Assembly (NCBI GenBank): GCA_035630155.1
Contig: DASQLH010000344.1
Span: forward strand, 2,880-66,879
Direction of reading: 5' to 3'
Source of the DNA: Chthoniobacterales bacterium
GTDB lineage: Bacteria > Verrucomicrobiota > Verrucomicrobiia > Chthoniobacterales > UBA10450
Length of the DNA: 64,000 nucleotides
Made by a program: the position numbers and the translations under genes. Positions within the stretch are counted from its first letter, which is position 1. Each line of letters begins with the position of its first letter. Below the pieces are notes generated by a model that was given only the letters and a program-made list of their open reading frames with translations, had not been told where the DNA came from and searched no databases. Of the stretch, positions 13,641 through 61,818 are shown piece by piece.

Positions 13641-16121
13641 TTAAGAACGATCCGGGGCGGTCTCGTCGTCTGTTCTGGCGTTGCCCCTGAGGCGCGCCTC
13701 CAACTCGTCCACACGGTCCTGAAGAAAACCTGTGGATCGTATTGCATCAGGACTTGCTCTCCGGCGACGAATAACCGCCAGACGCTCAGCGATTATCTGG
13801 CCGGCCGCCGCCGGGGAATGCAACGCGCGCACGTCCTCCGCCGCACGCGTGCCGCGCTTTAGCGCCTCGGCTGGGTCTTGATAGACACCCCGCATTAACC
13901 CAGCGGCGGCGTTTACATCAGGGCAGGACCAGTGTGATTCCGACGGATAGGGTTCCCGTTCGAGGCCAACTTTACATCGGCGAAAAGGACATAGGTAGCT
14001 GTTGTTCGCCGTCATGAATTCAAGGTTGCCGGAATAAGCGGTCGCAATCGTCGGTTTTCCCAAAGCCATTGCTTCCGCCATCGTCAAGCCAAAGCCTTCC
14101 GAGCGATGGAGAGACACGTAGCAATCTGAGAGGGCCGTAAGCGTGTTATTCTCTATCTGGGAAAGGTAACCGTCCATCAGTATGATATCGGGGCGTTCGC
14201 GGCTGGCATAGCGGAGCTTCTCCGTCTCGAGGGGTCGCTTGTCACCATTGATTGTTTTGATTACCAGGGCCGGCCCTTCACCGTTTGAAAAGGCTTTCGT
14301 AAAGGCCTCAATCACGCCCAGCGGATTCTTCCTTTCGAGGACGCTAAGAAAATCGAAACTGAAGAGAAAGACAAACTTGTCGGGCAAGTCCAGATCCGCG
14401 CGGGAGAGGGCCGGATCAATCTGCGGGATCAGCACCGGGAGCCGGAACTTGAAGACAGATTTGGGCGATACCTTCAGAAACGTCTCGCGCATGAACTCGC
14501 TCGCGACCCAGACTTCATCCACGTAGTCAAAGGCGACATGGAATTGCTTTGGGAAATCCTCGACTTCCCAAAACCACACGCCAATTGTGTAGCGCCCGTG
14601 CCTGAGCTCAGGTCCGGTCTGTTCCGCAAAATTAAGAAACTGATCGGGATTCACGCACACGATGTTTAGATCTGCGTCGCGAAGCTCGGCGCCGCGGCCG
14701 ACGAAGGGATAACTTTGGCGACTGGCGGTGGCGCCAAAGGGGATGGTGTTAAATGGGATGCCGGCGGCTTCCAAGCCTGTAAGGAGGGCACGCGCCGCAA
14801 CGCCGATCCCCAATTCGGCGCGAAAATAGCCGGCCACGTTCACCGGCGCGGCGGAAATTAAAGCGGATACGTCTCCGCTGGTTTCGGCCCCCGGCCGAAC
14901 ATCAAGGGGTAAGAGGACCGAGGGCAAGTCTAACTCGCGATGGCCATAACGGAGGTACCAATCACGGAAGTCGCCCGCGTCCGCCCCGCCTGGATCGGGA
15001 AAGGCCTTCTTCACATCTTTTCGCTCGTTATAGACCGCGAGCATATACCGCGTAACCACAGGTGAGGCTTTCCCGACTGGTTCGTTCAACCAATTCAAGA
15101 ACCCTTCTTCTCCTTCAGGACCAAAAGGGCTTGGCGGCTCTTTTGCCGATCCCCCTTTGTACATCCCATACGCCTCCCGATAGAGACGCAACATGCGTTG
15201 ATCGATGCGAAGACCGCTCGGGAGATAATCGAAGGGATAGGCGTGGTCGCCGAACTTGCCGTATCCAGCTTCCATGACCTTATCGCGATATTCGTCGCAT
15301 AATTTCGCGATCACGGGCCACTCGCTTAACAGAATCCGCGGCTCCAGACCCTGATGTTTGCTCAACAAATGCGGCTTGTCCGGATCATAGCCGCGAAAGT
15401 CAAAAGACCGCAGTGGCTCTCCCTCCACTTCGTAATGTTCTCCCGTCCAGGCAACCGTCTCCGGCTCCAGGCTCCAGCAACCAACCGCGAATCCAGGGAT
15501 CGTTAATACCCGATGAGGAATGGAATTGAACCAGTGCTCCCCTGCCTGACCTGAGTCGGTGCTTCTAACGTCACCGCTGGGATTTTGCTTCCGCGAGCTC
15601 TCGAACCACGAACGCAATCTCTTTTCCGCGCCACGCCGAGCTGCGATGAACCCTGGACCTAAATCGGCACCGAGCGCACTCCGCACTGTTTCCGTGGCAG
15701 TGAGCGCCTCGTTGGCGTGGATCACTTCCGAGATGTCGGACAACGAATCGTACACCTCTGTCGTTACTTCGAAATATGCCGCGGCCGTTGCACCAGAGTT
15801 CAGCACACTCCGAAGCAGCGCCGGCATGAGGAGGGCGACCAGCTGTTGTCCACTGTAGATCATCGGCAGACGCCACTCGTCGCCGGCCTCGAGGCCGAGG
15901 TCCGCCATGGATAACACGCGTGTTCCCGCCGGAAAAATTTCTGGTTCCGCCCCCTTATCGAGAATTAGGACGACGAATTCGCCTTCCGGATGGAACTTCA
16001 GGAAGGATCTCGCCAAAACGATCGCTTGCGGTATTTCGGTCGAAACGGCTATCGTGCATCCGGTTAGTGAATACAAAATGCGCGGCATGGCAGTGGGGGG
16101 CGCGGCTTGGATGTTATCCAT
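13641..16121 (-). CDS. large glycosyltransferase: C-terminal GT4/GT-B module with an uncharacterised N-terminal half
   Basis: 826 aa. The C-terminal region has SEGFGLTMAEAMALGKPTIATAYSGNLEFM (EX7E signature). I could not assign the N-terminal ~450 aa. Confidence 0.75.
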   Translation of the reverse strand: MDNIQAAPPTAMPRILYSLTGCTIAVSTEIPQAIVLARSFLKFHPEGEFVVLILDKGAEPEIFPAGTRVLSMADLGLEAGDEWRLPMIYSGQQLVALLMPALLRSVLNSGATAAAYFEVTTEVYDSLSDISEVIHANEALTATETVRSALGADLGPGFIAARRGAEKRLRSWFESSRKQNPSGDVRSTDSGQAGEHWFNSIPHRVLTIPGFAVGCWSLEPETVAWTGEHYEVEGEPLRSFDFRGYDPDKPHLLSKHQGLEPRILLSEWPVIAKLCDEYRDKVMEAGYGKFGDHAYPFDYLPSGLRIDQRMLRLYREAYGMYKGGSAKEPPSPFGPEGEEGFLNWLNEPVGKASPVVTRYMLAVYNERKDVKKAFPDPGGADAGDFRDWYLRYGHRELDLPSVLLPLDVRPGAETSGDVSALISAAPVNVAGYFRAELGIGVAARALLTGLEAAGIPFNTIPFGATASRQSYPFVGRGAELRDADLNIVCVNPDQFLNFAEQTGPELRHGRYTIGVWFWEVEDFPKQFHVAFDYVDEVWVASEFMRETFLKVSPKSVFKFRLPVLIPQIDPALSRADLDLPDKFVFLFSFDFLSVLERKNPLGVIEAFTKAFSNGEGPALVIKTINGDKRPLETEKLRYASRERPDIILMDGYLSQIENNTLTALSDCYVSLHRSEGFGLTMAEAMALGKPTIATAYSGNLEFMTANNSYLCPFRRCKVGLEREPYPSESHWSCPDVNAAAGLMRGVYQDPAEALKRGTRAAEDVRALHSPAAAGQIIAERLAVIRRRRASPDAIRSTGFLQDRVDELEARLRGNARTDDETAPDRS

Positions 16122-16179
16122 CAGACCCAGAATTAGCCACTAACCCGCACTCCCGTCATGTCGATTTTAGAGCGAAGAA

Positions 16180-18123
16180 ATGTTTTCGAAACTAGAGAAT
16201 GCTGATTCAACGAGACTAGCGCACTTGTCGCATCTCGCCAATCGGTGGCTGGAGTCTTGGGTGGGGCGGCTTTGCCTCCTTGGTGCCGTGGCCCTACTCT
16301 ACCTTTGCGCGTACCAGCAGTGTGGCTACCGTCCAGGCGCTTATTATCCGATCGGATGGTGGGGTTGGGCGGACCAGGGCCATTATTTGAAATGCGCTGC
16401 TAGCCTGGCTCAGGGGAGTCTTACGCCCGATTCTTATGTCTACGCTTTCGGGTACCCGGCTTTGGGCGCCTTGTTTTATAACTGGATGCCAAACCACGCG
16501 TTCCTGATTCCGAACCTGATCCTGGTCGTGGGTATTGCCGCTCTATTCTTTGAAATTGCCAGGCGGCTAATCACGCCTTTCGAGACGGTGTTATTAATGG
16601 CCGCATTCACCTTTTTTTATAGCGGTTTATTATCCGATATGCTGGTAGTGCCATGGAATACTATTCCGACCCACTTTCTGGCTTACGCGATGATCCTTTT
16701 GGTTGCCTTGGAACCGGTAACGAGAAAACGGCTGCTTCTCTCAGCTTTATGTGTTGGCCTTCTCTATTTGTGTCGTCAAGCAGACGCCTTTTGCATGGGG
16801 CTTTTGATTGGAATCGGTCTCTTACGCCTTCCCTCGTGGTCCGACAGAATTCGAACGGGTCTTTATTGTCTGGCCATCGTCTGTTTTTTTTGGGGATTTG
16901 TTTTGCTGGTTAATCAGGTGGTATTCGCTTCCTGGACTACGCGTTATGAGAAAATCGTTAATGGCATGGGGTTTGGGGGTTACCCAGTTTTGCGGAAGTG
17001 GTTCTGGTTTATTGTCGATAGTAGCGCAGTTTTCAACGAGCCCGGATCGACGCTGTCCTCGCGTTTCCCATGGTTTCCAGTTTTTCACGAACCCGGCACA
17101 GCGCTGTTCTCGCATCTCCCCTGGCTGCCATTGGTTATCCCTGGCGCCGTATGTTTTATACGCCGCCACTCTCTCGGCGCCTTGGGTGTGTTTTTCAGCA
17201 TCGGCGCTACGTACGTGCTTTATTTTCAGTTCAATGATTTCTGGCCTCATAACTTATTTCGCTTCCTCCTCGTTCATTATCTCTTCTGGACTTTTCCGCT
17301 CCTGGCCTTGTTCGCCTATCTAGGGGTCAAGGAGGCGTGGAAATTTGCGGCGGGCCGCTGGAGCTTCGGGATAGCACTAATGCTTAGCCTGGGGCTGTGG
17401 TTATTGACGATACGAGAGGAAGTCGCTGGCAAACTCCCAGGGCCTCCCCCTGCCGTGGGCGAGCTTACCGCTAACATCGCTCAACCGGTGGACTGGATTC
17501 TTTTCCGTGGCCTTGAAACTCCGCCAAAGCTAGCGAACGGGCACCGCGAACTCGTCCCGGTTTCCGATTTCGTCGTGCCGCTTCATTTCGAAGGCGTGTT
17601 AGTTGTTCTTTCAAAAGGGGCAAGAATTGAGTCGGTCAAATTCGACACCACGGGAATGCCGGGCTTAACCGCCATTGAATATGGCCGTTTCATTTGGCGT
17701 TTCCAATCGATCGGAAAGGCTGTTCGGACAGCGATTGATCGCTTTCGCGGAGCGCGCATTGTATCGTTAGTCAAGCTCCCAGAGATTGATGTGGCCGGTC
17801 CCACCGGGGGGCCGGATGGTCAACCGGATGAAGTGATAGAACTCGAGCTTCCAAAATCGACCTTACACAGGGTCACCGTATGGGACTTGGTATCAGACCA
17901 GGGTTCAGCACATTGGATTAGTGCTCCTCAATCACACGGCTGGTGGCCCATCAAAGCGTTGCCCTCCACGCGAACGCTACCGGAAGGGCAAAGCGGCGTT
18001 CGCCTCTGCTTCCCAAATTTTGGTAACCTCCAAGCCGCGCGCTCGGCGCGTCTCCGGGGTCTTGACGACTTTGGTCGAATCCATCTTCAAGTCATAATTC
18101 ACCCAAACAAACCCGTTCCGTAA
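16180..18123 (+). CDS. polytopic membrane protein, candidate GT-C-type glycosyltransferase, with a conserved C-terminal domain (paralogue B)
   Basis: 647 aa, collinear with the 7686..9584 product. Contains an extra 17-aa tandem duplication (FNEPGSTLSSRFPWFPV / FHEPGTALFSHLPWLPL). Carries the same C-terminal domain. Confidence 0.7.
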   Translation: MFSKLENADSTRLAHLSHLANRWLESWVGRLCLLGAVALLYLCAYQQCGYRPGAYYPIGWWGWADQGHYLKCAASLAQGSLTPDSYVYAFGYPALGALFYNWMPNHAFLIPNLILVVGIAALFFEIARRLITPFETVLLMAAFTFFYSGLLSDMLVVPWNTIPTHFLAYAMILLVALEPVTRKRLLLSALCVGLLYLCRQADAFCMGLLIGIGLLRLPSWSDRIRTGLYCLAIVCFFWGFVLLVNQVVFASWTTRYEKIVNGMGFGGYPVLRKWFWFIVDSSAVFNEPGSTLSSRFPWFPVFHEPGTALFSHLPWLPLVIPGAVCFIRRHSLGALGVFFSIGATYVLYFQFNDFWPHNLFRFLLVHYLFWTFPLLALFAYLGVKEAWKFAAGRWSFGIALMLSLGLWLLTIREEVAGKLPGPPPAVGELTANIAQPVDWILFRGLETPPKLANGHRELVPVSDFVVPLHFEGVLVVLSKGARIESVKFDTTGMPGLTAIEYGRFIWRFQSIGKAVRTAIDRFRGARIVSLVKLPEIDVAGPTGGPDGQPDEVIELELPKSTLHRVTVWDLVSDQGSAHWISAPQSHGWWPIKALPSTRTLPEGQSGVRLCFPNFGNLQAARSARLRGLDDFGRIHLQVIIHPNKPVP

Positions 18124-18181
18124 GCGATCTTCCTGCGTCACTTGTGCCTGCGACGATCCCAGGACGCACGGGCCGGTTAAC

Positions 18182-20053
18182 TTACAACGGCTCGTCAGCC
18201 CACAGCCGAACAAGCCACGAACCGCACAAGGCGACTCCGACGGCGTCGGCATCCGCCACGCCTGGACGGTCCCGTTCCCAGGAAACACGCAAGGAGAGCG
18301 GGACCTTCCAGGGCTCATTTGGGCGAAGGAGGACGCTGTTTGTTGACTTTTGCTCCCAGTGCTTGCTTCCGTCCGTCACAATAATCGAGTGTTTCGGAAA
18401 GTCCGACTGCGAAGAGGCACGGAGCGTAAGCCGGAGCGGAGCTCGTTGCATAATCGCCCGATCCTCCACCACAACCGCCAAGGAACCAGGGTCTAATCTT
18501 GCTGAATACCTCACTCGACTGGCTCGATGGATTTCAAAGCCGAGCAACAGCAGGAGAACGGCAACCGCCGTAAGAATCCTCGATCGATAAATCGTTGCTG
18601 CTGCCGCCATGGCGACCCAGACAGCACAGGCTCCGGCCGCCTTAAGAAGATAATCAGTATCCCCAAACAGGCCCAACCAAAAGCCGAGGTGAATCCATGG
18701 CACTATTTCGAAGAGACGATCATAGGGGAACGGCCCGCTTCGCGCAGCCAGGTGGAGGCCGGGATCAATTATAAGCATGACCGTATTTGCGAGCGACACC
18801 AGGCCGAGCAGCGCATAAAGGATTGCCTTTCCCAGCGTAAGCATTCGGCCTTGGAAAAAGCCGATCAGGCATATGGCCAAGACCGGGACGCCTATTACCC
18901 AAAAGCGCGCCGGAAATGTCTCCCCGGGGTTCTCACCCACTGTGGTGGTTACCAACGTAACCAAAAATGCAGACGCTGGAACACTCCACTCTCTGCGCTG
19001 CCAAAGCCCCTCAATTAATCCAACGAAGGAAAGAAGAAATATCGGCGCGTACGGCAAGAGACCGAAGTGGGAGTTTAAAAGAGCCGCTATGATCCCTCCC
19101 AAGGAAAATGTAGGCCGGCCGCTCGTCACGGACCCCAGCATGCTTCCATAAATCAGGCAATTGTACAAAATGACCGCTGTCACAGCGGCTAGATAAATGC
19201 CGGTAACTTTAACAACGATAATCCCTGAAGTGCCCGGCTTACGTCGCCATCCTAGTTTCAAAAACAGGTAGAGTGAGACGGCGACCAAGAGTGGAAGAGC
19301 ACGGAGGTGGACGAGAGGGGCCAGGCAGCTGCATATGATGCTTGGGGCGAAATCTCGCAATCTTTCCGTTCCCGTCCCGATCAGATTCCAAAACGCAATG
19401 CAGACGAGGAGAAACAAGATGGCCTCGGGCAAGGCGAGGAAGTAATAAGGGAACATGGGAAAGAAGAGTGCGGCAGGAATAAGACATCCCAGAGCCGAAG
19501 TGATTGGCAGCTTCTGCGCGATGAGCAATTTGGCCAGAAAGCATAATCCAACCAGCCCGGTCATCAGCGAGATAAGGCGGATCTGCGCAAGCGACAGACC
19601 TGTAACGAAAGGTGAAAGAAGCAACGACCATACGATGGAATGGACCGGCTTATCCGGATCTGGCTGGACGTCGTTAAGAGGCTGTGCCGCTAGTTCGAAA
19701 CCGGGCAATCTCTCGTGCCTAAGCTTTTCATAGCCGTCCTCGCTCATGAGGGGCTTGCCTTCAACCTTCAAGGAGAGGGCATAGAGTAAATAACGGGGCT
19801 CGTCACCCGTATATGCCAGTCTTTCGGTGAGACGGGCGGTCAGGCCTAGGATCGGCACTGCCGCAACGACCAGATAAAGTATCCACTTCGGCAGGAGCCT
19901 GGGAAGGTTGAACGGTTGCACGTAAGGGAGTTGAATTCTCGGGCTGACTATTTTGAGATCGATCGAACCTCTTAGCGACGTTTGGAAGCACACACCGGCG
20001 CTGCTCAAGAAGAGGTCATATGGGTCCTCCGGAGAGTAACGGCCGAACGGCAC
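18182..20053 (-). CDS. polytopic membrane protein, GT-C-fold glycosyltransferase candidate (ArnT/PMT-like)
   Basis: 623 aa with many TM spans. The first loop contains TGDEPRYLLYALSL, which resembles the DE.RY motif of ArnT-type GT-C enzymes. Confidence 0.65.
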   Translation of the reverse strand: MPFGRYSPEDPYDLFLSSAGVCFQTSLRGSIDLKIVSPRIQLPYVQPFNLPRLLPKWILYLVVAAVPILGLTARLTERLAYTGDEPRYLLYALSLKVEGKPLMSEDGYEKLRHERLPGFELAAQPLNDVQPDPDKPVHSIVWSLLLSPFVTGLSLAQIRLISLMTGLVGLCFLAKLLIAQKLPITSALGCLIPAALFFPMFPYYFLALPEAILFLLVCIAFWNLIGTGTERLRDFAPSIICSCLAPLVHLRALPLLVAVSLYLFLKLGWRRKPGTSGIIVVKVTGIYLAAVTAVILYNCLIYGSMLGSVTSGRPTFSLGGIIAALLNSHFGLLPYAPIFLLSFVGLIEGLWQRREWSVPASAFLVTLVTTTVGENPGETFPARFWVIGVPVLAICLIGFFQGRMLTLGKAILYALLGLVSLANTVMLIIDPGLHLAARSGPFPYDRLFEIVPWIHLGFWLGLFGDTDYLLKAAGACAVWVAMAAAATIYRSRILTAVAVLLLLLGFEIHRASRVRYSARLDPGSLAVVVEDRAIMQRAPLRLTLRASSQSDFPKHSIIVTDGSKHWEQKSTNSVLLRPNEPWKVPLSLRVSWERDRPGVADADAVGVALCGSWLVRLWADEPL

Positions 20054-56949: not shown

Positions 56950-57353
56950 CGGTCGCCCGGTTGCGCGTGAGCAGGGTCGTGACCGTGATCGATGCCGGCC
57001 GCATTCTCAATCCGCTCGCCGGCCGGAACCAGATCGAGGGCGCCGTCGTGATGGGAATCGGAATGGCGCTGTTGGAGCACACCCATTACGACCCACAGAA
57101 CGGCGCGCCCATCAACAGCAAACCTGGCCCATTACATGGTGGCAGTGAACGCCGACGTGCCCAAGCTCGAGGTGCATTTCCTCGATTACCCCGACAAGGA
57201 ACTCAATGCAGTCGGCGCGCGCGGCATCAGCGAGATCGGCTAGCCGGCGCCGCCGCCGCCATCACCTCGGCGACCCATCACGCGACCGATGTGCGCGTCC
57301 GCGAACTGCCGATCAAGCTCGAGGACCTTCTCACCTCGTCCATCCTGGCCTGA
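56950..57353 (+). pseudogene. 3' remnant of a xanthine dehydrogenase / aldehyde oxidase-family molybdopterin-binding subunit (5'-truncated, at least 2 frameshifts)
   Basis: Frame 1 reads VVTVIDAGRILNPLAGRNQIEGAVVMGIGMALLEHTHYDPQNGAPIN. Frame 2 reads LAHYMVAVNADVPKLEVHFLDYPDKELNAVGARGISEIG then a stop. Frame 3 reads LAGAAAAITSATHHATDVRVRELPIKLEDLL. Only the last ~130 codons of a normally >700-aa protein are present. Confidence 0.8.
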
Positions 57354-57499: not shown

Positions 57500-58231
57500 T
57501 TATCGCACCGGTGACTCACACCGCTCTTGATGGATAAGGTACATTGCGAAGCAAACCAATATTGCGAATAACTCGCCACTGTGGACGATGACGATGCATT
57601 GCTTCCACTGGAAGTTCTGTTTGTACGCGAAGACGGTTAGCCCGACGTGAATCGCGATTAGCGCGAAATTAAGTATCGTCGTGGCCGTCCCAATGGGCGT
57701 CTTCACTGAACGAACGCTGTTCTCCGCGTTCTGCGACTCCCATGCCATCGGAGCACCGCCCAACCGAGCATTGATCTTCCGTTCGATCGCCGCACACTGC
57801 CGGGCCTCGACGAGCAGCATGTACAAGTTAGACATCTGCAGGAGAAGATACGCGAAGATCACCGTAGGCAGACCGACGACGACCACCTTGACCTGCCACG
57901 AATACATGTCCTGCGAGTACGCGGTAACCGTGAGCGCGCCGCCCAAGAGTGCGCCAAGGACTGTTGTGTCGCGACGAAAATTCGAGAGGAACAGTAACAT
58001 CTCCTTCCGAAGTGTGCTGTACTCTTCCAGCGCAGCTTTCAGCCAAAGTTCGCTGTTCTCGGACTGTGGCACACCCGCACCTATAGCGATAGAACCCGCG
58101 CTTTGGAAGGCGGAAATTATGCAAAGCCGCAGTTTGCCAAAGGCAACATGGGTCAGTTTTGATGCGCGGCATTTCCGCCGCATGCCGAGAACTGCCCTGT
58201 CCAACACCGACGCAATCGAACTGGCTTTCAT
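57500..58231 (-). CDS. 4-TM membrane protein, unknown function (partner of the HEPN-like gene)
   Basis: 243 aa. A soluble N-terminal ~75 aa (..LWLKAALEEYSTLRKEML) is followed by four hydrophobic helices. It lies 30 nt downstream of, and co-directional with, 58262..59311, in a region visibly more AT-rich than its flanks. Confidence 0.6.
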   Translation of the reverse strand: MKASSIASVLDRAVLGMRRKCRASKLTHVAFGKLRLCIISAFQSAGSIAIGAGVPQSENSELWLKAALEEYSTLRKEMLLFLSNFRRDTTVLGALLGGALTVTAYSQDMYSWQVKVVVVGLPTVIFAYLLLQMSNLYMLLVEARQCAAIERKINARLGGAPMAWESQNAENSVRSVKTPIGTATTILNFALIAIHVGLTVFAYKQNFQWKQCIVIVHSGELFAILVCFAMYLIHQERCESPVR

Positions 58232-58261
58232 CCGGCTTGCCCAAGACTCACAGATCCGTTC

Positions 58262-59311
58262 TCAGGAAAGCGGAATGTCTGGCGGTGGCGGCGACTCCCA
58301 AGTGTCGATTAGCGTCCGAATTTGTGCATCGAGAGCTTCGATGAGTGTCTCCACTGCACGTGTAAGTTCGGCTACTGCATCAGCCGTTATCGATATCGTT
58401 TTGCCGTCCTTCGTAAAACCGTTTCGATGCACTAAATCGTGTCTAATTAGGATCGCTTTGAAAATATCCCCGATTCCCCGGGGGAACTCCACGCCCAACA
58501 CTGTTGCGTACATCTTGCGAACTTTTTCGAGCCGATGAAACGGAAACACGCTTAGATGCTCCGATACAATTTCGTGAACTTTGTCAAGATGCTGAAACAG
58601 TTGCGACACGCTCAGCGAACGTTCCTTGAAACTGGGCTCGGATTCTACGAACTTTCGGAAAAGGCTCGGGTATTTATTTATCAGTGATATGAAAACGTCT
58701 GATAGATATGCCTCTAGCACGGTCACTGCGTTCGCATATAGCAGCGCCAGCAGCGTCAGCAGCGCAGGCTTCTCAGTCGCACCGACGTGTAATGCAGCGA
58801 GCCTCCGAAGCGTGTCGATACTCGCCTCGAATCGTTGAAAAAATTCAGACGCAGAATAGTCTAGGTCGAAGTCTTCACGCCCCGGAACCGATGCCCACTC
58901 AGTCGTACCCTCTTCGGATTCTAGCTCCTGTGCGACAGCTTCGATGAAATTTTCTGGGACACACTGCCCGAATTCTGACCAAAGAATTTCTTCGGCATCG
59001 TGCGGTCCGCCCCAGATGTAAATATAACCACCCTCCGCTGATTCATATGGCGTGTTCTCCGCGGGATTTTCGTACCGCTGCCGGAACCAATGCTTGATTA
59101 TGCGCTTCTGATGCGCTGGCCCCAGCTCTGCGAATTCTGTCGCGTTGTACTCAGCACCTGTCTCTGGATCGAAGTATTCTGACATCGCCGAAAGCGGGTC
59201 GACAGTACAACTGTCGTGGGCGCTTTCAAGCAACAGGTCAAAATTGCGCCGGAATGTACGACAACTACGTTCAGACAGAGGCGGGTCTGTTTCCGACGAG
59301 CATGAGCACAT
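58262..59311 (-). CDS. hypothetical protein with a C-terminal HEPN-like (Rx4H) domain
   Basis: 349-aa ORF, with an alternative ATG at 59185 (MSEYFDPETG). The C-terminal all-helical region ends in ILIRHDLVHRNG (R-x4-H, encoded at 58427-58444), as in RiboL-PSP/Abi-type HEPN domains. I do not recognise the acidic N-terminal ~170 aa. Confidence 0.6.
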   Translation of the reverse strand: MCSCSSETDPPLSERSCRTFRRNFDLLLESAHDSCTVDPLSAMSEYFDPETGAEYNATEFAELGPAHQKRIIKHWFRQRYENPAENTPYESAEGGYIYIWGGPHDAEEILWSEFGQCVPENFIEAVAQELESEEGTTEWASVPGREDFDLDYSASEFFQRFEASIDTLRRLAALHVGATEKPALLTLLALLYANAVTVLEAYLSDVFISLINKYPSLFRKFVESEPSFKERSLSVSQLFQHLDKVHEIVSEHLSVFPFHRLEKVRKMYATVLGVEFPRGIGDIFKAILIRHDLVHRNGFTKDGKTISITADAVAELTRAVETLIEALDAQIRTLIDTWESPPPPDIPLS

Positions 59312-59518: not shown

Positions 59519-59552
59519 CCGTTGGCGGATCGGAGGTCAGATGGATCGATCG

Positions 59553-59596
59553 GAACTGAAAGCTTCCCAATGGGAAGGTCAGCGAGGATGGAGGAT
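59553..59596 (+). repeat. local dispersed repeat E, copy 1
   Basis: GAACTGAAAGCTTCCCAAT (59553-59571) and AGCGAGGATGGAGGAT (59581-59596). These match 60296-60314 (one mismatch) and 60331-60346 (identical). Confidence 0.75.
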
Positions 59597-59714
59597 GGCG
59601 GAGGGTTCTAGAAGTAGAAATTAGAAAGTAGGAAGTAGAAGACGGGATTCGCCTGCGCTGAGACTCCGGCGTGGCAAGACGGAGGGCAGAGTGCCGGCGG
59701 CCCGAAGGCGCGAA

Positions 59715-59757
59715 AATTCCCGATCGCGCGATGCTAGATCAATTCCTGGAATGGTCG
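59715..59757 (+). pseudogene. relic fragment of a second DUF433 gene
   Basis: GCGCGATGCTAGATCAATTCCTGGAATGGT matches GCGCGACGCTAGACCAATTCCTGGAATGGT inside the intact DUF433 gene (about 60571-60600) at 27 of 30 positions. It would encode ..MLDQFLEW.. and then diverges. Confidence 0.6.
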
Positions 59758-59758
59758 A

Positions 59759-59971
59759 TCAGCGCTTGGCTGCTGCAAGAGGAATGTGGCTGGTGACAAG
59801 TTCCCGCAGGTCGAGTTTCTTGCTCGCGTGGTCGATATCAATGCCCGCCAGATTGCCTTCGGCATCGTAATCCAGAACAACGCCCGCGGAAACTTCTTGG
59901 CTCTCAACACTCGGCTTCTCTGAAAGATCGATGTAAAGGGAATCGGTCTCGGGAAAATAGTTCAGTTTCAT
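59759..59971 (-). CDS. DUF2283-family protein (putative antitoxin partner of DUF4258)
   Basis: MKLNYFPETDSLYIDLSEKPS...VVLDYDAEGNLAGIDIDHASK is the canonical DUF2283 pattern. ATGA-type 4-nt overlap with the upstream gene. Confidence 0.8.
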   Translation of the reverse strand: MKLNYFPETDSLYIDLSEKPSVESQEVSAGVVLDYDAEGNLAGIDIDHASKKLDLRELVTSHIPLAAAKR

Positions 59972-60210
59972 GGCTGGAAGCGACGGTCTAAGAATGCGTT
60001 GTGGATGGTGAGCCTATCGGAAAGCGTCACAACTCGCAAGAACCGTCCTTGCAACTCGTCCACGGCGCCCCAAAACCGATAACGATCCTGCTCTTGGAGT
60101 TCGACGCGAATCGGTGAGCGCACGACTCGCACGCACATCTCCTTGGTCAGGTACGGTCGTTTGCGCATGACCTGGGTTTCGAAGTACGAGGTGAATTCGT
60201 AGTCGGGCAT
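59968..60210 (-). CDS. DUF4258-family protein (putative toxin)
   Basis: 80 aa. Its size, genomic pairing with DUF2283, and the ...RFLRVVTLSDRLTIHNAFLDRRF C-terminus are consistent with DUF4258. Confidence 0.65.
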   Translation of the reverse strand: MPDYEFTSYFETQVMRKRPYLTKEMCVRVVRSPIRVELQEQDRYRFWGAVDELQGRFLRVVTLSDRLTIHNAFLDRRFQP

Positions 60211-60295
60211 GCGTGCATCGTATCAGAAATCGGTTGCGGGTTGCCAGAGCGGACGCCAGTTCCTTCCACGTCGACCTTCAAGGTGAAACGGATCT

Positions 60296-60346
60296 GAACG
60301 GAAAGCTTCCCAATTAAACCGGAGAGTGGAAGCGAGGATGGAGGAT
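60296..60346 (+). repeat. local dispersed repeat E, copy 2
   Basis: See copy 1. It is followed by a 13-nt direct repeat CAGAGGTCGG(A/C)AGC occurring twice (about 60362-60395). Confidence 0.75.
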
Positions 60347-60449
60347 CGAGAATGGCGAAGACAGAGGTCGGAAGCCGGAGATCAGAGGTCGGCAGCGAAA
60401 GCGGAATCTCTGATTGCTCCCGACAGTGGCGGCGACTAAACTTTCGATC

Positions 60450-60746
60450 ATGCTCGATTGGACAAAGTGCACAGCGGTCGAACGCTCCCCGGCGCGAGTA
60501 AGTGGCGCCTGGGTATTTCGCGGGACGCGCGTGCCGGTAAAGGCGCTGTTCGAGAACCTGGAAGATGGCGCGACGCTAGACCAATTCCTGGAATGGTTTC
60601 CCGGCGCGACCCGCGAGCAAGCTCTGGCCGTCCTGGAGTTCACCGAGGGTGACGTTGAGCGAATTCTGGTAAATCGCCTGGCGGGACCGTTTAAGCCGTT
60701 GGAAACGGATTGGAGAGAACGCGTGCGCCAGTCCGCGGCGAAATAG
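60450..60746 (+). CDS. DUF433-domain protein (antitoxin-like HTH), no adjacent toxin
   Basis: The ATG at 60450 gives MLDWTKCTAVERSPARVSGAWVFRGTRVPVKALFENLEDGATLDQFLEWFPGATREQALAVLEF, matching the DUF433 pattern (G.p.i.GTRipV..l...l..G.s...il..yP.lt.e.i.aaL.y). Confidence 0.75.
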   Translation: MLDWTKCTAVERSPARVSGAWVFRGTRVPVKALFENLEDGATLDQFLEWFPGATREQALAVLEFTEGDVERILVNRLAGPFKPLETDWRERVRQSAAK

Positions 60747-60761: not shown

Positions 60762-60806
60762 TATTCGCCATCCTCAATCTTCCATCCTCGCTGATCCTCT
60801 TCCGCG
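60762..60806 (-). repeat. local dispersed repeat E, copy 3 (inverted)
   Basis: The reverse complement of 60777-60792 is AGCGAGGATGGAAGAT, a 15/16 match to the E core. The flanking GAGGATGGCGAA also matches copy 2. Confidence 0.65.
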
Positions 60807-60834
60807 CTACCATCTACCCTTTAGAGGAAAAACC

Positions 60835-61818
60835 ATGAGCCAAGGCTCGCGTGTCCGCGGCGTTCTGGCTCCTGTTGTCACTCCGTTCCGAGCCGATTTC
60901 TCGCCTGATAAAGAACGTTTTATCGCGCATTGCCAATGGCTGCTTTCGCAGAACTGCGGGCTGGCGGCGTTCGGCACCACCAGCGAGGCGAACTCGCTGG
61001 CGGCCGAAGAGCGCTCGACGCTACTCGATGGCCTGGTCGCGACCGGAGTCGACACGTCGCGCATGATGGTGGGAACCGGTTGTTGTTCGATCACGGAAAC
61101 AGTCAGACTCACGTCGCAGGCGGTAAAGCATGGTTGCGCAGGTGTCTTAATGCTGCCGCCTTTCTATTACAAAGGTGTCAGCGAAGAAGGTCTCTACCGC
61201 TATTCCAGCGAGGTCGTGCAGCGCGTCGGCGATCCACGGCTGAGAATTTATCTATACCATATCCCGCCGGTGGCGGTGGTCGGCATTACACCGGGCTTGG
61301 TCGAGCGCCTCCTGAAGTCGTATCCCAACGCCATCGCCGGGATGAAAGACAGCTCGGGCGATTGGAACAACACGAAGATTTTCCTCGACGCGTTCGCCGA
61401 GTCCGGTTTTGACGTGTTTGCCGGCAGCGAATCGTTCCTCCTCGCTAATATGCGGAATGGCGGCGCCGGCACTATTTCCGCGACCGCCAACGTTAACCCG
61501 GCCGCAATTCACAAGCTCTACGCGGAGTGGAAGAATGCAGATGCCGACGACCAGCAGGCAAACTTAAACGTCGTACGCGACGCGTTCGGCAAGAAATACC
61601 CGATGATAAGCGCGTTGAAGCAAGGCATCGCGATCTACGCGAACGATCCGGCGTGGACGAAGGTGCGGCCGCCGCTGGTCGAACTCACGGCAGAGCAGGC
61701 CAAGACGCTCGCCGCGGAACTCAAAGCGATCTCCTTTACGATGCCGGGATTGAAGTGCGTGCGAAGCGAGGATGGACCTGCCCGCAAAGCTGCGCGTAGC
61801 GTTGCAGGCGGGGAATAG
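60835..61818 (+). CDS. dihydrodipicolinate synthase / N-acetylneuraminate lyase-family (class I aldolase) protein
   Basis: GVLAPVVTPF..., GLAAFGTTSEANSLAAEER, YLYHIPPVAVV and IAGMKDSSGD (Schiff-base Lys context). Confidence 0.85.
   Translation: MSQGSRVRGVLAPVVTPFRADFSPDKERFIAHCQWLLSQNCGLAAFGTTSEANSLAAEERSTLLDGLVATGVDTSRMMVGTGCCSITETVRLTSQAVKHGCAGVLMLPPFYYKGVSEEGLYRYSSEVVQRVGDPRLRIYLYHIPPVAVVGITPGLVERLLKSYPNAIAGMKDSSGDWNNTKIFLDAFAESGFDVFAGSESFLLANMRNGGAGTISATANVNPAAIHKLYAEWKNADADDQQANLNVVRDAFGKKYPMISALKQGIAIYANDPAWTKVRPPLVELTAEQAKTLAAELKAISFTMPGLKCVRSEDGPARKAARSVAGGE

Follow-up and report, generated by a model that had tools for sequence, protein, structure and literature searches.

Two neighbouring open reading frames (ORFs) on the minus strand of a 64,000-nt stretch of DNA from a Chthoniobacterales bacterium (the window) encode a HEPN-like protein and a membrane protein with four transmembrane helices (4-TM protein). 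An original prediction, made from the DNA sequence, held that the two genes form a pair, a candidate for an undescribed defence or abortive-infection (Abi) system. Does the locus encode such a two-gene system, or a single gene of interest next to an unrelated one? The best explanation, to which we assign a probability of roughly 0.7, is that 58262..59185(-) is a stand-alone, horizontally acquired candidate gene for an Abi-like HEPN RNase and that the downstream 4-TM gene is unrelated to it.

Gene boundaries, composition and surroundings

The two ORFs were found as predicted and are listed here with the likely genes within them and the spacer between these.
57500..58231, minus strand: maximal ORF of the membrane protein (243 aa, start ATG 58231, VEX43_17365)
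57500..58072, minus strand: probable gene of the 4-TM protein (190 aa, start GTG 58072; from the starts of relatives)
58073..58261, minus strand: probable intergenic spacer of ~190 nt (from homologue starts, flat G+C and a homology breakpoint)
58262..59311, minus strand: maximal HEPN ORF (349 aa; from the ORF list)
58262..59185, minus strand: likely HEPN/RES-NTD1 + HEPN coding sequence (307 aa from M43; from homologue starts)

The HEPN ORF is probably over-extended at its 5' end and starts at M43, because the relatives start at this position (MSEYFDPE in the homologue alignment), residues 1-43 are disordered in the structure model (pLDDT <50), and GC1/2/3 are flat in the extension, which lacks the coding G+C pattern. 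The NCBI version of the gene (VEX43_17370) encodes 323 aa. The membrane ORF is probably over-extended as well, with GTG 58072 as the start codon, because all 39 relatives start at the ELW..LEEY helix; moreover, codon-position G+C is flat over 58073-58231. With these starts, the gap between the two genes is probably ~190 nt rather than the predicted 30 nt, which holds for the maximal ORFs, i.e. only with ATG 58231 as the start of the membrane gene (58232-58261).

The G+C content of 57500-59311 is 0.530 compared with 0.585 ± 0.021 for stretches of the same length (lowest 0.9%), in agreement with the predicted AT-shifted islet. The HEPN gene is foreign by its GC3 of 0.53, compared with 0.66-0.82 for host genes, whereas the membrane gene has a host-like GC3 of 0.71; a foreign composition at third codon positions was found in one of the two genes only.

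The toxin-antitoxin (TA)-type neighbours and the pseudogene scar that had been noted beside the pair were identified as follows.
56961..57353, plus strand: pseudogene scar, a C-terminal fragment of a molybdopterin-cofactor-binding gene of the xanthine dehydrogenase/aldehyde oxidase type (PF20256)
59759..59971, minus strand: DUF2283 gene (Pfam E=1.5e-18)
59968..60210, minus strand: unassigned 80-aa ORF overlapping the DUF2283 gene by 4 nt
60414..60746, plus strand: DUF433 gene, divergent from the HEPN gene (Pfam E=4e-14)

The pseudogene scar matches PF20256 (MoCoBD_2) with E=1.2e-15 at profile positions 219-271 of 283 only. At the locus of the closest relative of the HEPN gene (L082, 88% identical), the DUF433 gene is a conserved upstream neighbour (95.7% nucleotide identity with L082 257-510), the small two-gene module at 59759..60210(-) is absent, and the DUF433-to-HEPN spacing is 250 nt compared with 1194 nt in the window.

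Domains and motif of the HEPN protein

Two domains and the predicted catalytic signature were located in the HEPN protein, numbered according to the 349-aa ORF.
58892..59098, minus strand: HEPN/RES-NTD1 (PF18870), residues 72-140 (Pfam)
58319..58753, minus strand: RiboL-PSP/MAE_18760-type HEPN domain (PF18735), residues 187-331 (Pfam)
58427..58444, minus strand: R-x4-H motif RHDLVH, R290-H295, predicted catalytic signature (translation)

The motif ILIRHDLVHRNG and the helix AVTVLEAYLSDVFISLINKYP are both present in the translation of the HEPN ORF, and a total of 145 homologues of the protein were found. Consistent with the predicted RiboL-PSP-type domain, PF18735 matches 24 of 28 aligned homologues at E<=1e-3 (best 1e-12); the window protein itself matches 160/191 profile positions with E=2.4e-5 and 24.8 bits, which is below the gathering threshold of 28.4. 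Moreover, the predicted R-x4-H signature was corroborated: R290, H291, H295 and R296 are invariant in sets of 28 and 38 sequences that are just 27-89% identical to the window protein, and this invariance across divergent sequences suggests that a catalytic site is under selection. Judged by its sequence, the product of the upstream gene is a RiboL-PSP-type member of the HEPN family.

The N-terminal ~170 aa had been regarded as unassignable. By contrast, we found that PF18870 (HEPN/RES-NTD1) matches 20 of the 28 family members (best E 5.8e-7), and the window protein with E=3e-4 and 21.5 bits (Pfam gathering score 27.4). Inside this domain lies a near-invariant WF..YENPAENTPYESAEGGYIYIWGGP motif, and the invariant columns are W75, F76, P83, P88, E93, G94, G95, Y96, I99, G101, G102 and P103. 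The fusion of the two domains was published in 2013, when the HEPN/RES-NTD1 + HEPN architecture was described computationally as Abi-like (Anantharaman, Makarova, Burroughs, Koonin and Aravind 2013, Biol Direct 8:15; PMC3710099). The proteins described there share with the window protein the two-domain architecture, the R-x4-H motif, a bacterial origin, a patchy or mobile distribution and the Abi-like prediction, and show no essential difference from it; the window protein, a divergent member from Chthoniobacterales, falls just under both Pfam thresholds.

In the homologue alignment, conservation is stronger in NTD1 than in the HEPN domain. A fast-evolving phage sensor would not usually be conserved so strongly.

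Distribution and context of the HEPN family

Relatives of the HEPN protein are encoded at no fewer than 214 genome loci in many phyla, on at least 80 plasmids (51 of them conjugative), on at least 27 IMG/VR viral contigs and in 7 phage records; the protein also matches phrog_17908 in PHROGs (E=5.8e-28). Elements of E. coli, Klebsiella and Citrobacter are among the plasmid and prophage carriers; WP_014639476.1 is one such prophage/plasmid homologue of E. coli. Some relatives lie in defence islands together with NERD, Ymh-HEPN, KAP NTPase, PLD, Swt1-HEPN/DUF499 and Schlafen genes, and others sit among housekeeping genes. Within 3 kb of 46 full-length HEPN loci, no gene family recurs except at three syntenic cyanobacterial loci, and neither a separate antitoxin gene nor a conserved neighbour was found at these 46 loci. 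In total, we conclude that the HEPN family is widespread, mobile and stand-alone, with no obligate partner.

Neither an Rfam match nor a meaningful tandem repeat was found at the HEPN locus, and a type III TA or AbiF-like reading with an RNA antitoxin was rejected on these grounds.

Proposed mechanism and related systems

As an Abi-like RNase, the protein would combine NTD1 as a putative sensor or autoinhibitory module with a C-terminal RiboL-PSP/MAE_18760-type HEPN domain acting as a metal-independent RNase. The protein would dimerise through its HEPN domains, so that two R-x4-H motifs form a single active site; NTD1 would release the RNase on sensing a trigger, and cleavage of RNA might then arrest the infected or stressed cell. 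This proposal follows what is established for HEPN RNases; the analysis itself provides the domains, the motif conservation, the mobility and the lack of an obligate partner. In the literature searched, no RNase activity, toxicity or phage phenotype was found for any member of the HEPN family.

In a review table, PF18735 is listed in the validated anti-phage systems PD-T4-2, PD-T4-5 and PD-T7-3 (Vassallo et al. 2022) and ApeA (Gao et al. 2020) (PMC10952713). These single- or two-gene systems resemble the window protein in their reported PF18735 HEPN domain and differ from it in their N-terminal domains. Neither the HEPN protein nor the membrane protein matches any model in PADLOC-DB v2.0.0 at E<=1, in line with the expectation that the locus is not an already classified system. 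PADLOC presumably holds models for PD-T4-2, PD-T4-5, PD-T7-3 and ApeA. Homologues P0024 and P0090 and a homologue on a Pseudomonas plasmid gave nothing at E<=0.01 in PADLOC, and the E. coli homologue gave an irrelevant match to PglX only (E=0.009).

The stand-alone, tail-activated HEPN protein Tha of S. aureus prophages cleaves RNA non-specifically once a phage protein has activated it (Rostol et al. 2024, PMC11087260). Likened by description, the mechanism of Tha is the one proposed for the window HEPN protein; however, Tha is under the control of Ith, an inhibitor gene that overlaps it in antisense, and no conserved equivalent of Ith was found in the 46 HEPN loci.

The HEPN protein could instead be the toxin of a TA-like addiction module that serves stabilisation of mobile DNA or stress arrest rather than phage defence, with NTD1 as an in-cis antitoxin. 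The mechanism of such a module overlaps that of the Abi-like RNase, and the biological role alone differs. RES toxins share NTD1 (PMC3710099), the HEPN gene is common on conjugative plasmids, it lies among TA-type genes in the window and, elsewhere, in HicB and ParE-type contexts, and the strong conservation of NTD1 is more regulator-like than phage-sensor-like. However, there is neither a separate antitoxin gene nor a conserved neighbour, signs of an RNA antitoxin are lacking, and related PF18735 HEPN proteins have been reported in phage defence; we consider an addiction module unlikely.

Relation of the membrane gene to the HEPN gene

The 190-aa membrane protein has four family-conserved hydrophobic segments (residues 36-52, 64-80, 129-145 and 160-176), as expected from the four TM helices predicted. 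Its family is rare, with 39 representatives at E<=1e-3 among 1.84 billion sequences, and the family profile found 4 proteins in a 5.8-billion-protein set (word-indexed search). Conserved residues are E17, Y18, D35, P69, F73, I96, E97, M109, W111 and E112, and conserved motifs are EY..LR.EM, FHRRD, EA..CA.IE and M.WES. The protein has no match in Pfam, PADLOC, NCBIfam or PHROGs, tblastn against plasmids and phages as well as a scan of viral contigs returned nothing, and a metagenome scan returned two short loci only.

Conservation of the pair was not borne out, since homologues of the two genes are never adjacent in any locus examined (80 HEPN loci and six membrane-family contexts). Specifically, tblastn with the membrane protein detected no homologue at the 80 HEPN loci, a co-directional downstream ORF with at least two hydrophobic segments is present at only 2 of 57 HEPN loci, and a HEPN partner is lacking in 6/6 contexts recovered for the rare membrane family besides the window. 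Moreover, at L082 homology to the window ends at position 58252, ~10 nt beyond the stop codon of the HEPN gene; an unrelated gene for a 179-aa soluble protein follows, and the membrane gene is absent.

The membrane gene has other neighbours elsewhere. Its family is recurrently linked to an AAA_28 P-loop protein alone, once as a fusion (AAA_28 E=1.4e-30) and once in an operon in which the two genes overlap by 4 nt and the AAA_28 protein is 41% identical to the fused domain; the latter locus also has a ParE pair. In other contexts, the co-directional neighbour is a 301-aa protein that weakly matches CAP12/Pycsar TIR (E=0.011), an upstream 438-aa protein (L001) or an IS91-like fragment. The 438-aa protein was considered as a hidden HEPN protein and rejected (BLASTP E=0.64, no Pfam HEPN match).

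In the window, the two genes may be co-transcribed, because they are co-directional on the minus strand and the spacer between them has no terminator-like site; a sigma-70 promoter scan returned no site at all and is uninformative for this phylum. This arrangement would agree with a genuine lineage-specific two-gene conflict system in which the 4-TM protein is a modular partner (effector, anchor or immunity protein) of varied cytoplasmic proteins, as would the conflict or mobile contexts of the membrane family with their differing co-directional neighbours (AAA_28 and ParE, TIR-like, 438-aa, IS91-like). A HEPN-TM defence system of phage-inducible chromosomal islands has, moreover, been mentioned (PMC12948488). 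Likened by description, that system combines a HEPN protein with a membrane component, i.e. the pairing originally proposed here, and differs in that the HEPN gene in the window has no conserved partnership with the membrane gene. HEPN-TM reportedly goes back to Fillol-Salom et al. 2022 and is said to be 'FS_HEPN_TM' in DefenseFinder. However, no membrane gene accompanies the 88%-identical HEPN gene found at the same locus of the chromosome, the two genes are unlike in GC3, the gap is probably ~190 nt, membrane ORFs are downstream of very few HEPN genes, no HEPN gene occurs at the other membrane-family loci, and PADLOC has no model that matches either protein. A two-gene system of this kind is, in our estimate, quite improbable. 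Equally doubtful is that the 4-TM family is an undescribed modular component of conflict systems, with an AAA_28 NTPase, a TIR-like protein and, here, the HEPN/RES-NTD1 RNase candidate as partners; if it were, the window would hold a HEPN + membrane system newly put together in this lineage.

Altogether, the membrane gene is a chance neighbour and no demonstrated partner of the HEPN gene, and the two are not a new two-gene defence system. A local rearrangement at a variable site of the chromosome, rather than a shared function, best accounts for their juxtaposition.

Structure models and fold searches

The model of the HEPN domain is all-helical with a pLDDT of 93.3, and the full-length two-domain model has a pTM of 0.58. 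The structural HEPN match that had been expected was not obtained: Foldseek returned nothing at E<=0.001 with the full-length model against PDB or with the high-confidence HEPN-domain model against PDB and BFVD. Matches of the HEPN-domain model to HepT-type HEPN toxins (E=1.8-3.8) were non-significant, and a phage MAE_28990/MAE_18760-like HEPN protein matched with E=0.6 and TM 0.50. A profile search of PDB sequences detected no solved relative. Because Foldseek gave no significant HEPN match, fold-level support for the HEPN assignment is suggestive only.

A C-terminal helical bundle without catalytic activity, in a non-nuclease protein that acts in binding or as a scaffold, would fit the lack of significant matches to solved HEPN structures, the lack of a solved relative by sequence and the sub-threshold Pfam score of the window protein, but is very improbable given the invariance of R290/H295 as well as H291 and R296 over such divergent sequences and the family-level Pfam support down to E=1e-12.

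The HepT-MntA (HEPN-MNT) type VII TA systems (PDB 5yep, 7ae6, 7ae9 and 8xeh) share with the window protein the R-x4-H RNase chemistry, which is predicted in the latter. By contrast, the window HEPN domain is larger (~190 aa), is preceded by NTD1 and has no significant structural or sequence match to them (5yep_C, TM-score 0.52 normalised to the target, non-significant). No MNT nucleotidyltransferase gene is present among the neighbours in the window or as a conserved neighbour at the 46 HEPN loci, and an MNT-HEPN toxin-antitoxin reading was rejected for lack of this gene.

Significance

If the HEPN protein is a stand-alone Abi-like RNase, the window adds one more member, this one from Verrucomicrobiota, to a large predicted family. 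Interest rests with the HEPN family rather than with the locus in the window, where the two-gene proposal fails. The family was named computationally in 2013 with a predicted function only and is absent from PADLOC, yet it is present on many conjugative plasmids and prophages; through an enterobacterial member, the known defence systems could gain one that consists of a single gene. The link between the membrane family and the AAA_28 P-loop protein is one small new lead.

The two open reading frames and their composition

The original prediction held that two minus-strand ORFs are a candidate for an undescribed two-gene defence or abortive-infection pair next to toxin-antitoxin-type genes and a pseudogene scar. 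Both ORFs were found with the proposed spacing of 30 nt between the maximal ORFs, the quoted motifs were present in the translations, and the neighbouring features were also found:

56961-57353: molybdopterin-enzyme gene, C-terminal fragment
57500..58231, minus strand: membrane-protein ORF, maximal ORF of 243 aa
58262..59311, minus strand: HEPN ORF, maximal ORF of 349 aa
59759-60210: DUF2283 gene (Pfam) overlapping an unassigned 80-aa ORF
60414-60746: DUF433 gene (Pfam)

VEX43_17370 and VEX43_17365, which are annotated as "hypothetical" in a Chthoniobacterales (Verrucomicrobiota) metagenome-assembled genome, are exact copies of both products. The 5' ends of both ORFs are probably over-extended. 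The HEPN-protein homologues start at M43, residues 1-43 are disordered in the predicted structure, and the 5' extension lacks the GC3>GC1>GC2 pattern typical of the genes in this genome; all relatives of the membrane protein start at the ELW..LEEY helix, with which a GTG at 58072 is compatible. With M43 and GTG 58072 taken as the starts, the products would comprise 307 aa and 190 aa and the gap would be ~190 nt.

The G+C content of 57500-59311 is 0.530 vs 0.585 +/- 0.021 for same-length windows across the 64-kb window, i.e. the proposed AT-shifted islet is among the lowest 0.9%. Judged by third-position G+C, the foreign look appears confined to the HEPN gene: GC3 is 0.53 in this gene and 0.71 in the membrane gene, the surrounding host genes having 0.66-0.82.

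The HEPN protein belongs to a predicted Abi-like family

In Pfam, the window protein gave sub-threshold matches to HEPN_RiboL-PSP (PF18735; residues 187-331, E=2.4e-5) and to HEPN/RES N-terminal domain 1 (NTD1; PF18870; residues 72-140, E=3e-4). Among 28 aligned homologues with 34-89% identity to it, PF18735 was matched by 24 (best 1e-12) and PF18870 by 20 (best 5.8e-7); both assignments are supported at the family level. The N-terminal region, previously regarded as unplaceable, is therefore assigned to a named domain, for which Anantharaman et al. 2013 (PMC3710099) list fusions both with MAE_28990-superfamily HEPN domains (MAE_18760 family) and with RES toxins. In line with the proposed R-x4-H motif (R290 and H295), the RHDLVHR residues R290, H291, H295 and R296 are invariant in alignments of 28 and of 38 sequences.

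Support from the fold was less than had been hoped for. A confident helical bundle was modelled for the C-terminal domain (pLDDT 93.3, pTM 0.87), but Foldseek gave no match in PDB at E<=0.001, and the HepT-type HEPN toxins 7ae6, 7ae9, 5yep and 8xeh were found only at E=1.8-3.8, none of them significant. In BFVD, the best match was an uncharacterised siphovirus protein (E=0.011, TM 0.66) and the third-ranked a phage "MAE-28990/MAE-18760-like HEPN" protein (E=0.6, TM 0.50); no solved relatives were found by sequence among PDB sequences. The predicted HEPN identity is supported at the family level, and the fold-level matches are suggestive.

The most conserved stretch of the protein, NPAENTPYESAEGGYIYIWGGP (residues 83-103, within 58892-59098, minus strand), is nearly invariant across phyla. 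The model shows it as a loop of low confidence (pLDDT 53-70), possibly a site for binding or for an interface that takes on its fold only within a complex.

The HEPN gene is mobile and has no conserved partner

The HEPN family is mobile. When one genome per species was scanned, relatives were encoded at 214 loci, in Verrucomicrobiota, Desulfobacterota, Myxococcota, Proteobacteria, Cyanobacteria, Acidobacteriota, Planctomycetota, Nitrospirota and others. Relatives are also present on 80 plasmids (51 conjugative), on which their annotation reads "HEPN domain-containing" or "HEPN-associated N-terminal domain-containing" protein, as well as on 27 IMG/VR contigs and in 7 phage records; moreover, the HEPN protein matched phrog_17908 (E=5.8e-28).

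Seven lines of evidence concur that the HEPN gene has no conserved partner, two of them being the mobility of the family and the third-position G+C of the two genes. Using tblastn, no membrane-protein homologue was detected in 80 kept HEPN loci. Separately, HEPN was absent among the neighbours of the membrane family in its six other contexts. ORF clustering revealed no recurrent neighbour family within 3 kb of 46 full-length loci, except in three syntenic cyanobacterial loci, and a co-directional ORF with at least two hydrophobic segments starting within 300 nt downstream was found in 2 of the 57 full-length loci having enough downstream sequence. P0002, which at 88% identity is the closest relative, is encoded on a 3-kb contig; this contig and the window have the upstream DUF433 gene in common (95.7% nucleotide identity). 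Homology between the two spans 59201 to 58252 of the window, ending ~10 nt beyond the HEPN stop codon, and the next gene on the contig encodes an unrelated soluble 179-aa protein instead. Therefore, a near-identical HEPN gene in the same chromosomal spot manages without the membrane gene. By Pfam annotation, every neighbourhood of eight relatives is different: DUF433; NERD, Ymh-type HEPN and RHS; KAP NTPase; PLD; transposases and HicB; PD-(D/E)XK, Swt1-HEPN/DUF499 and Schlafen; and housekeeping genes alone. In total, an undescribed HEPN and membrane pair is not supported.

On the E. coli plasmid pMS20655A (NZ_CP082081.1; 3944-5923 of the recovered locus), a 31%-identical HEPN homologue lies between replication genes and hokD/rusA in a lambdoid-prophage-like block. 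The gene 15 nt downstream encodes a 333-aa protein that weakly matches GNAT (E=9e-4) and is a candidate lineage-specific partner; this homologue offers an easy entry for experiments. Related Chthoniobacterales contigs (L084-L086), compared with 60829-61761 of the window, have a DHDPS gene (92% nucleotide identity) in common with it, as well as a gene for an MFS/TLC transporter. Their HEPN gene, 53% identical, lies on the opposite side of DHDPS, adjoining a KAP NTPase. The DHDPS surroundings seem to be a variable spot that hosts this HEPN family repeatedly.

The membrane gene belongs to a rare family

The downstream ORF is a genuine gene whose family is rare: when 1.84 billion representatives were searched exhaustively with HMMER, 39 proteins were found at E<=1e-3, nearly all of 180-215 aa. 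As predicted, four hydrophobic segments are conserved across the family, and the charge distribution suggests an N-in/C-in topology. E17, Y18, D35, P69, F73, I96, E97, M109, W111 and E112 are near-invariant. The protein had no match in Pfam, NCBIfam, PADLOC or PHROG, and the family was not found on searching plasmids, phages and viral contigs.

Six other contexts of this 4-TM family were recovered:

L001: 516 nt downstream of an unrelated 438-aa protein
L117, 5001-6190: after a ParE pair, with a 4-nt overlap with an AAA_28 P-loop gene
L125: between a 301-aa protein and a 290-aa membrane protein
P0132: fusion to an AAA_28 domain (E=1.4e-30)
Fifth context: adjoining an IS91-like transposase fragment
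Sixth context: beside a convergent 403-aa gene

AAA_28 is the sole repeated link, the two AAA_28 sequences being 41% identical, and the 4-TM and AAA_28 proteins may together be a two-component module that is undescribed and separate from the HEPN gene. In PADLOC, the AAA_28 protein of L117 has a weak match to the VakA model (E=1.5e-6).

The co-directional upstream neighbours in L001 (1880-3196) and L125 (3993-4898) start with a strand-loop pattern (MHLVYFSHSY and VFVAMPF, respectively) and, from their translations, are possibly TIR- or deoxyribosyltransferase-like. A weak CAP12/Pycsar TIR match was found in the L125 protein only (E=0.011), and the two neighbours have no detectable similarity to each other. 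From the six contexts examined, we consider it improbable that the 4-TM family serves as a modular partner whose cytoplasmic components can be exchanged.

Predicted function of the HEPN protein

The sequences show the domain make-up of the protein, the invariance of its motif, the mobility of the family, the foreign composition of the gene and the lack of an obligate partner. By analogy with established HEPN RNases and the Abi-like architecture argument of PMC3710099, we infer that NTD1 would hold the HEPN RNase inactive until a trigger is met; the HEPN domains would then dimerise, creating a composite R-x4-H site that would cut RNA, and this cleavage would arrest the cell. Among characterised HEPN proteins, a stand-alone analogue is found in S. 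aureus prophages: Tha, which phage tail proteins activate and whose RNase activity is non-specific (PMC11087260). PF18735 is listed for PD-T4-2, PD-T4-5, PD-T7-3 and ApeA in a review table (PMC10952713). No PADLOC model was matched by the window HEPN protein (E<=1) or, at E<=0.01, by the relatives P0024, P0090 and the Pseudomonas plasmid homologue, and the E. coli homologue gave just an irrelevant PglX hit (E=0.009).

A toxin-antitoxin or addiction role is a live alternative, and we keep it because NTD1 carries more invariant positions in the alignment than the HEPN domain; such invariance is easier to reconcile with contact to a conserved ligand or host factor, or with an antitoxin acting in cis, than with a phage sensor under rapid evolution. 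No RNA antitoxin-like feature was found. Altogether, the sequence evidence points to a stand-alone HEPN protein of predicted function, from an Abi-like family already defined by computation, and next to its gene an unrelated membrane gene of a rare family in a variable, scarred chromosomal spot.

Repeats and a second G+C-poor segment

Between the HEPN and DUF2283 genes, the upstream region and 5' portion of the DUF433 gene recur as a decayed partial copy (59545-59755 vs 60291-60597); the repeats D1, D2 and D3 show 84-92% identity at distances of 750-842 nt. Because of this partial duplicate, and because the DUF2283/80-aa pair is absent from the locus of P0002, the region looks like a scar from insertion of the DUF2283/80-aa module. 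Inverted repeats of 29 nt, 90% complementary, lie either side of the DUF433 gene (60331-60359 and 60764-60792), with a third copy at 59574-59605; their core, AGCGAGGATGGAGGAT, occurs 3 times in the window vs 0 expected. Possible readings of these repeats are a small mobile cassette and a regulatory element.

The sole other equally G+C-poor stretch of the window (15850-18200; 0.523-0.529) spans the 5' end of an 826-aa gene, whose translation we would guess to be glycosyltransferase-like, as well as a multi-TM gene of 647 aa. Possibly, this segment serves polysaccharide synthesis and was acquired horizontally.
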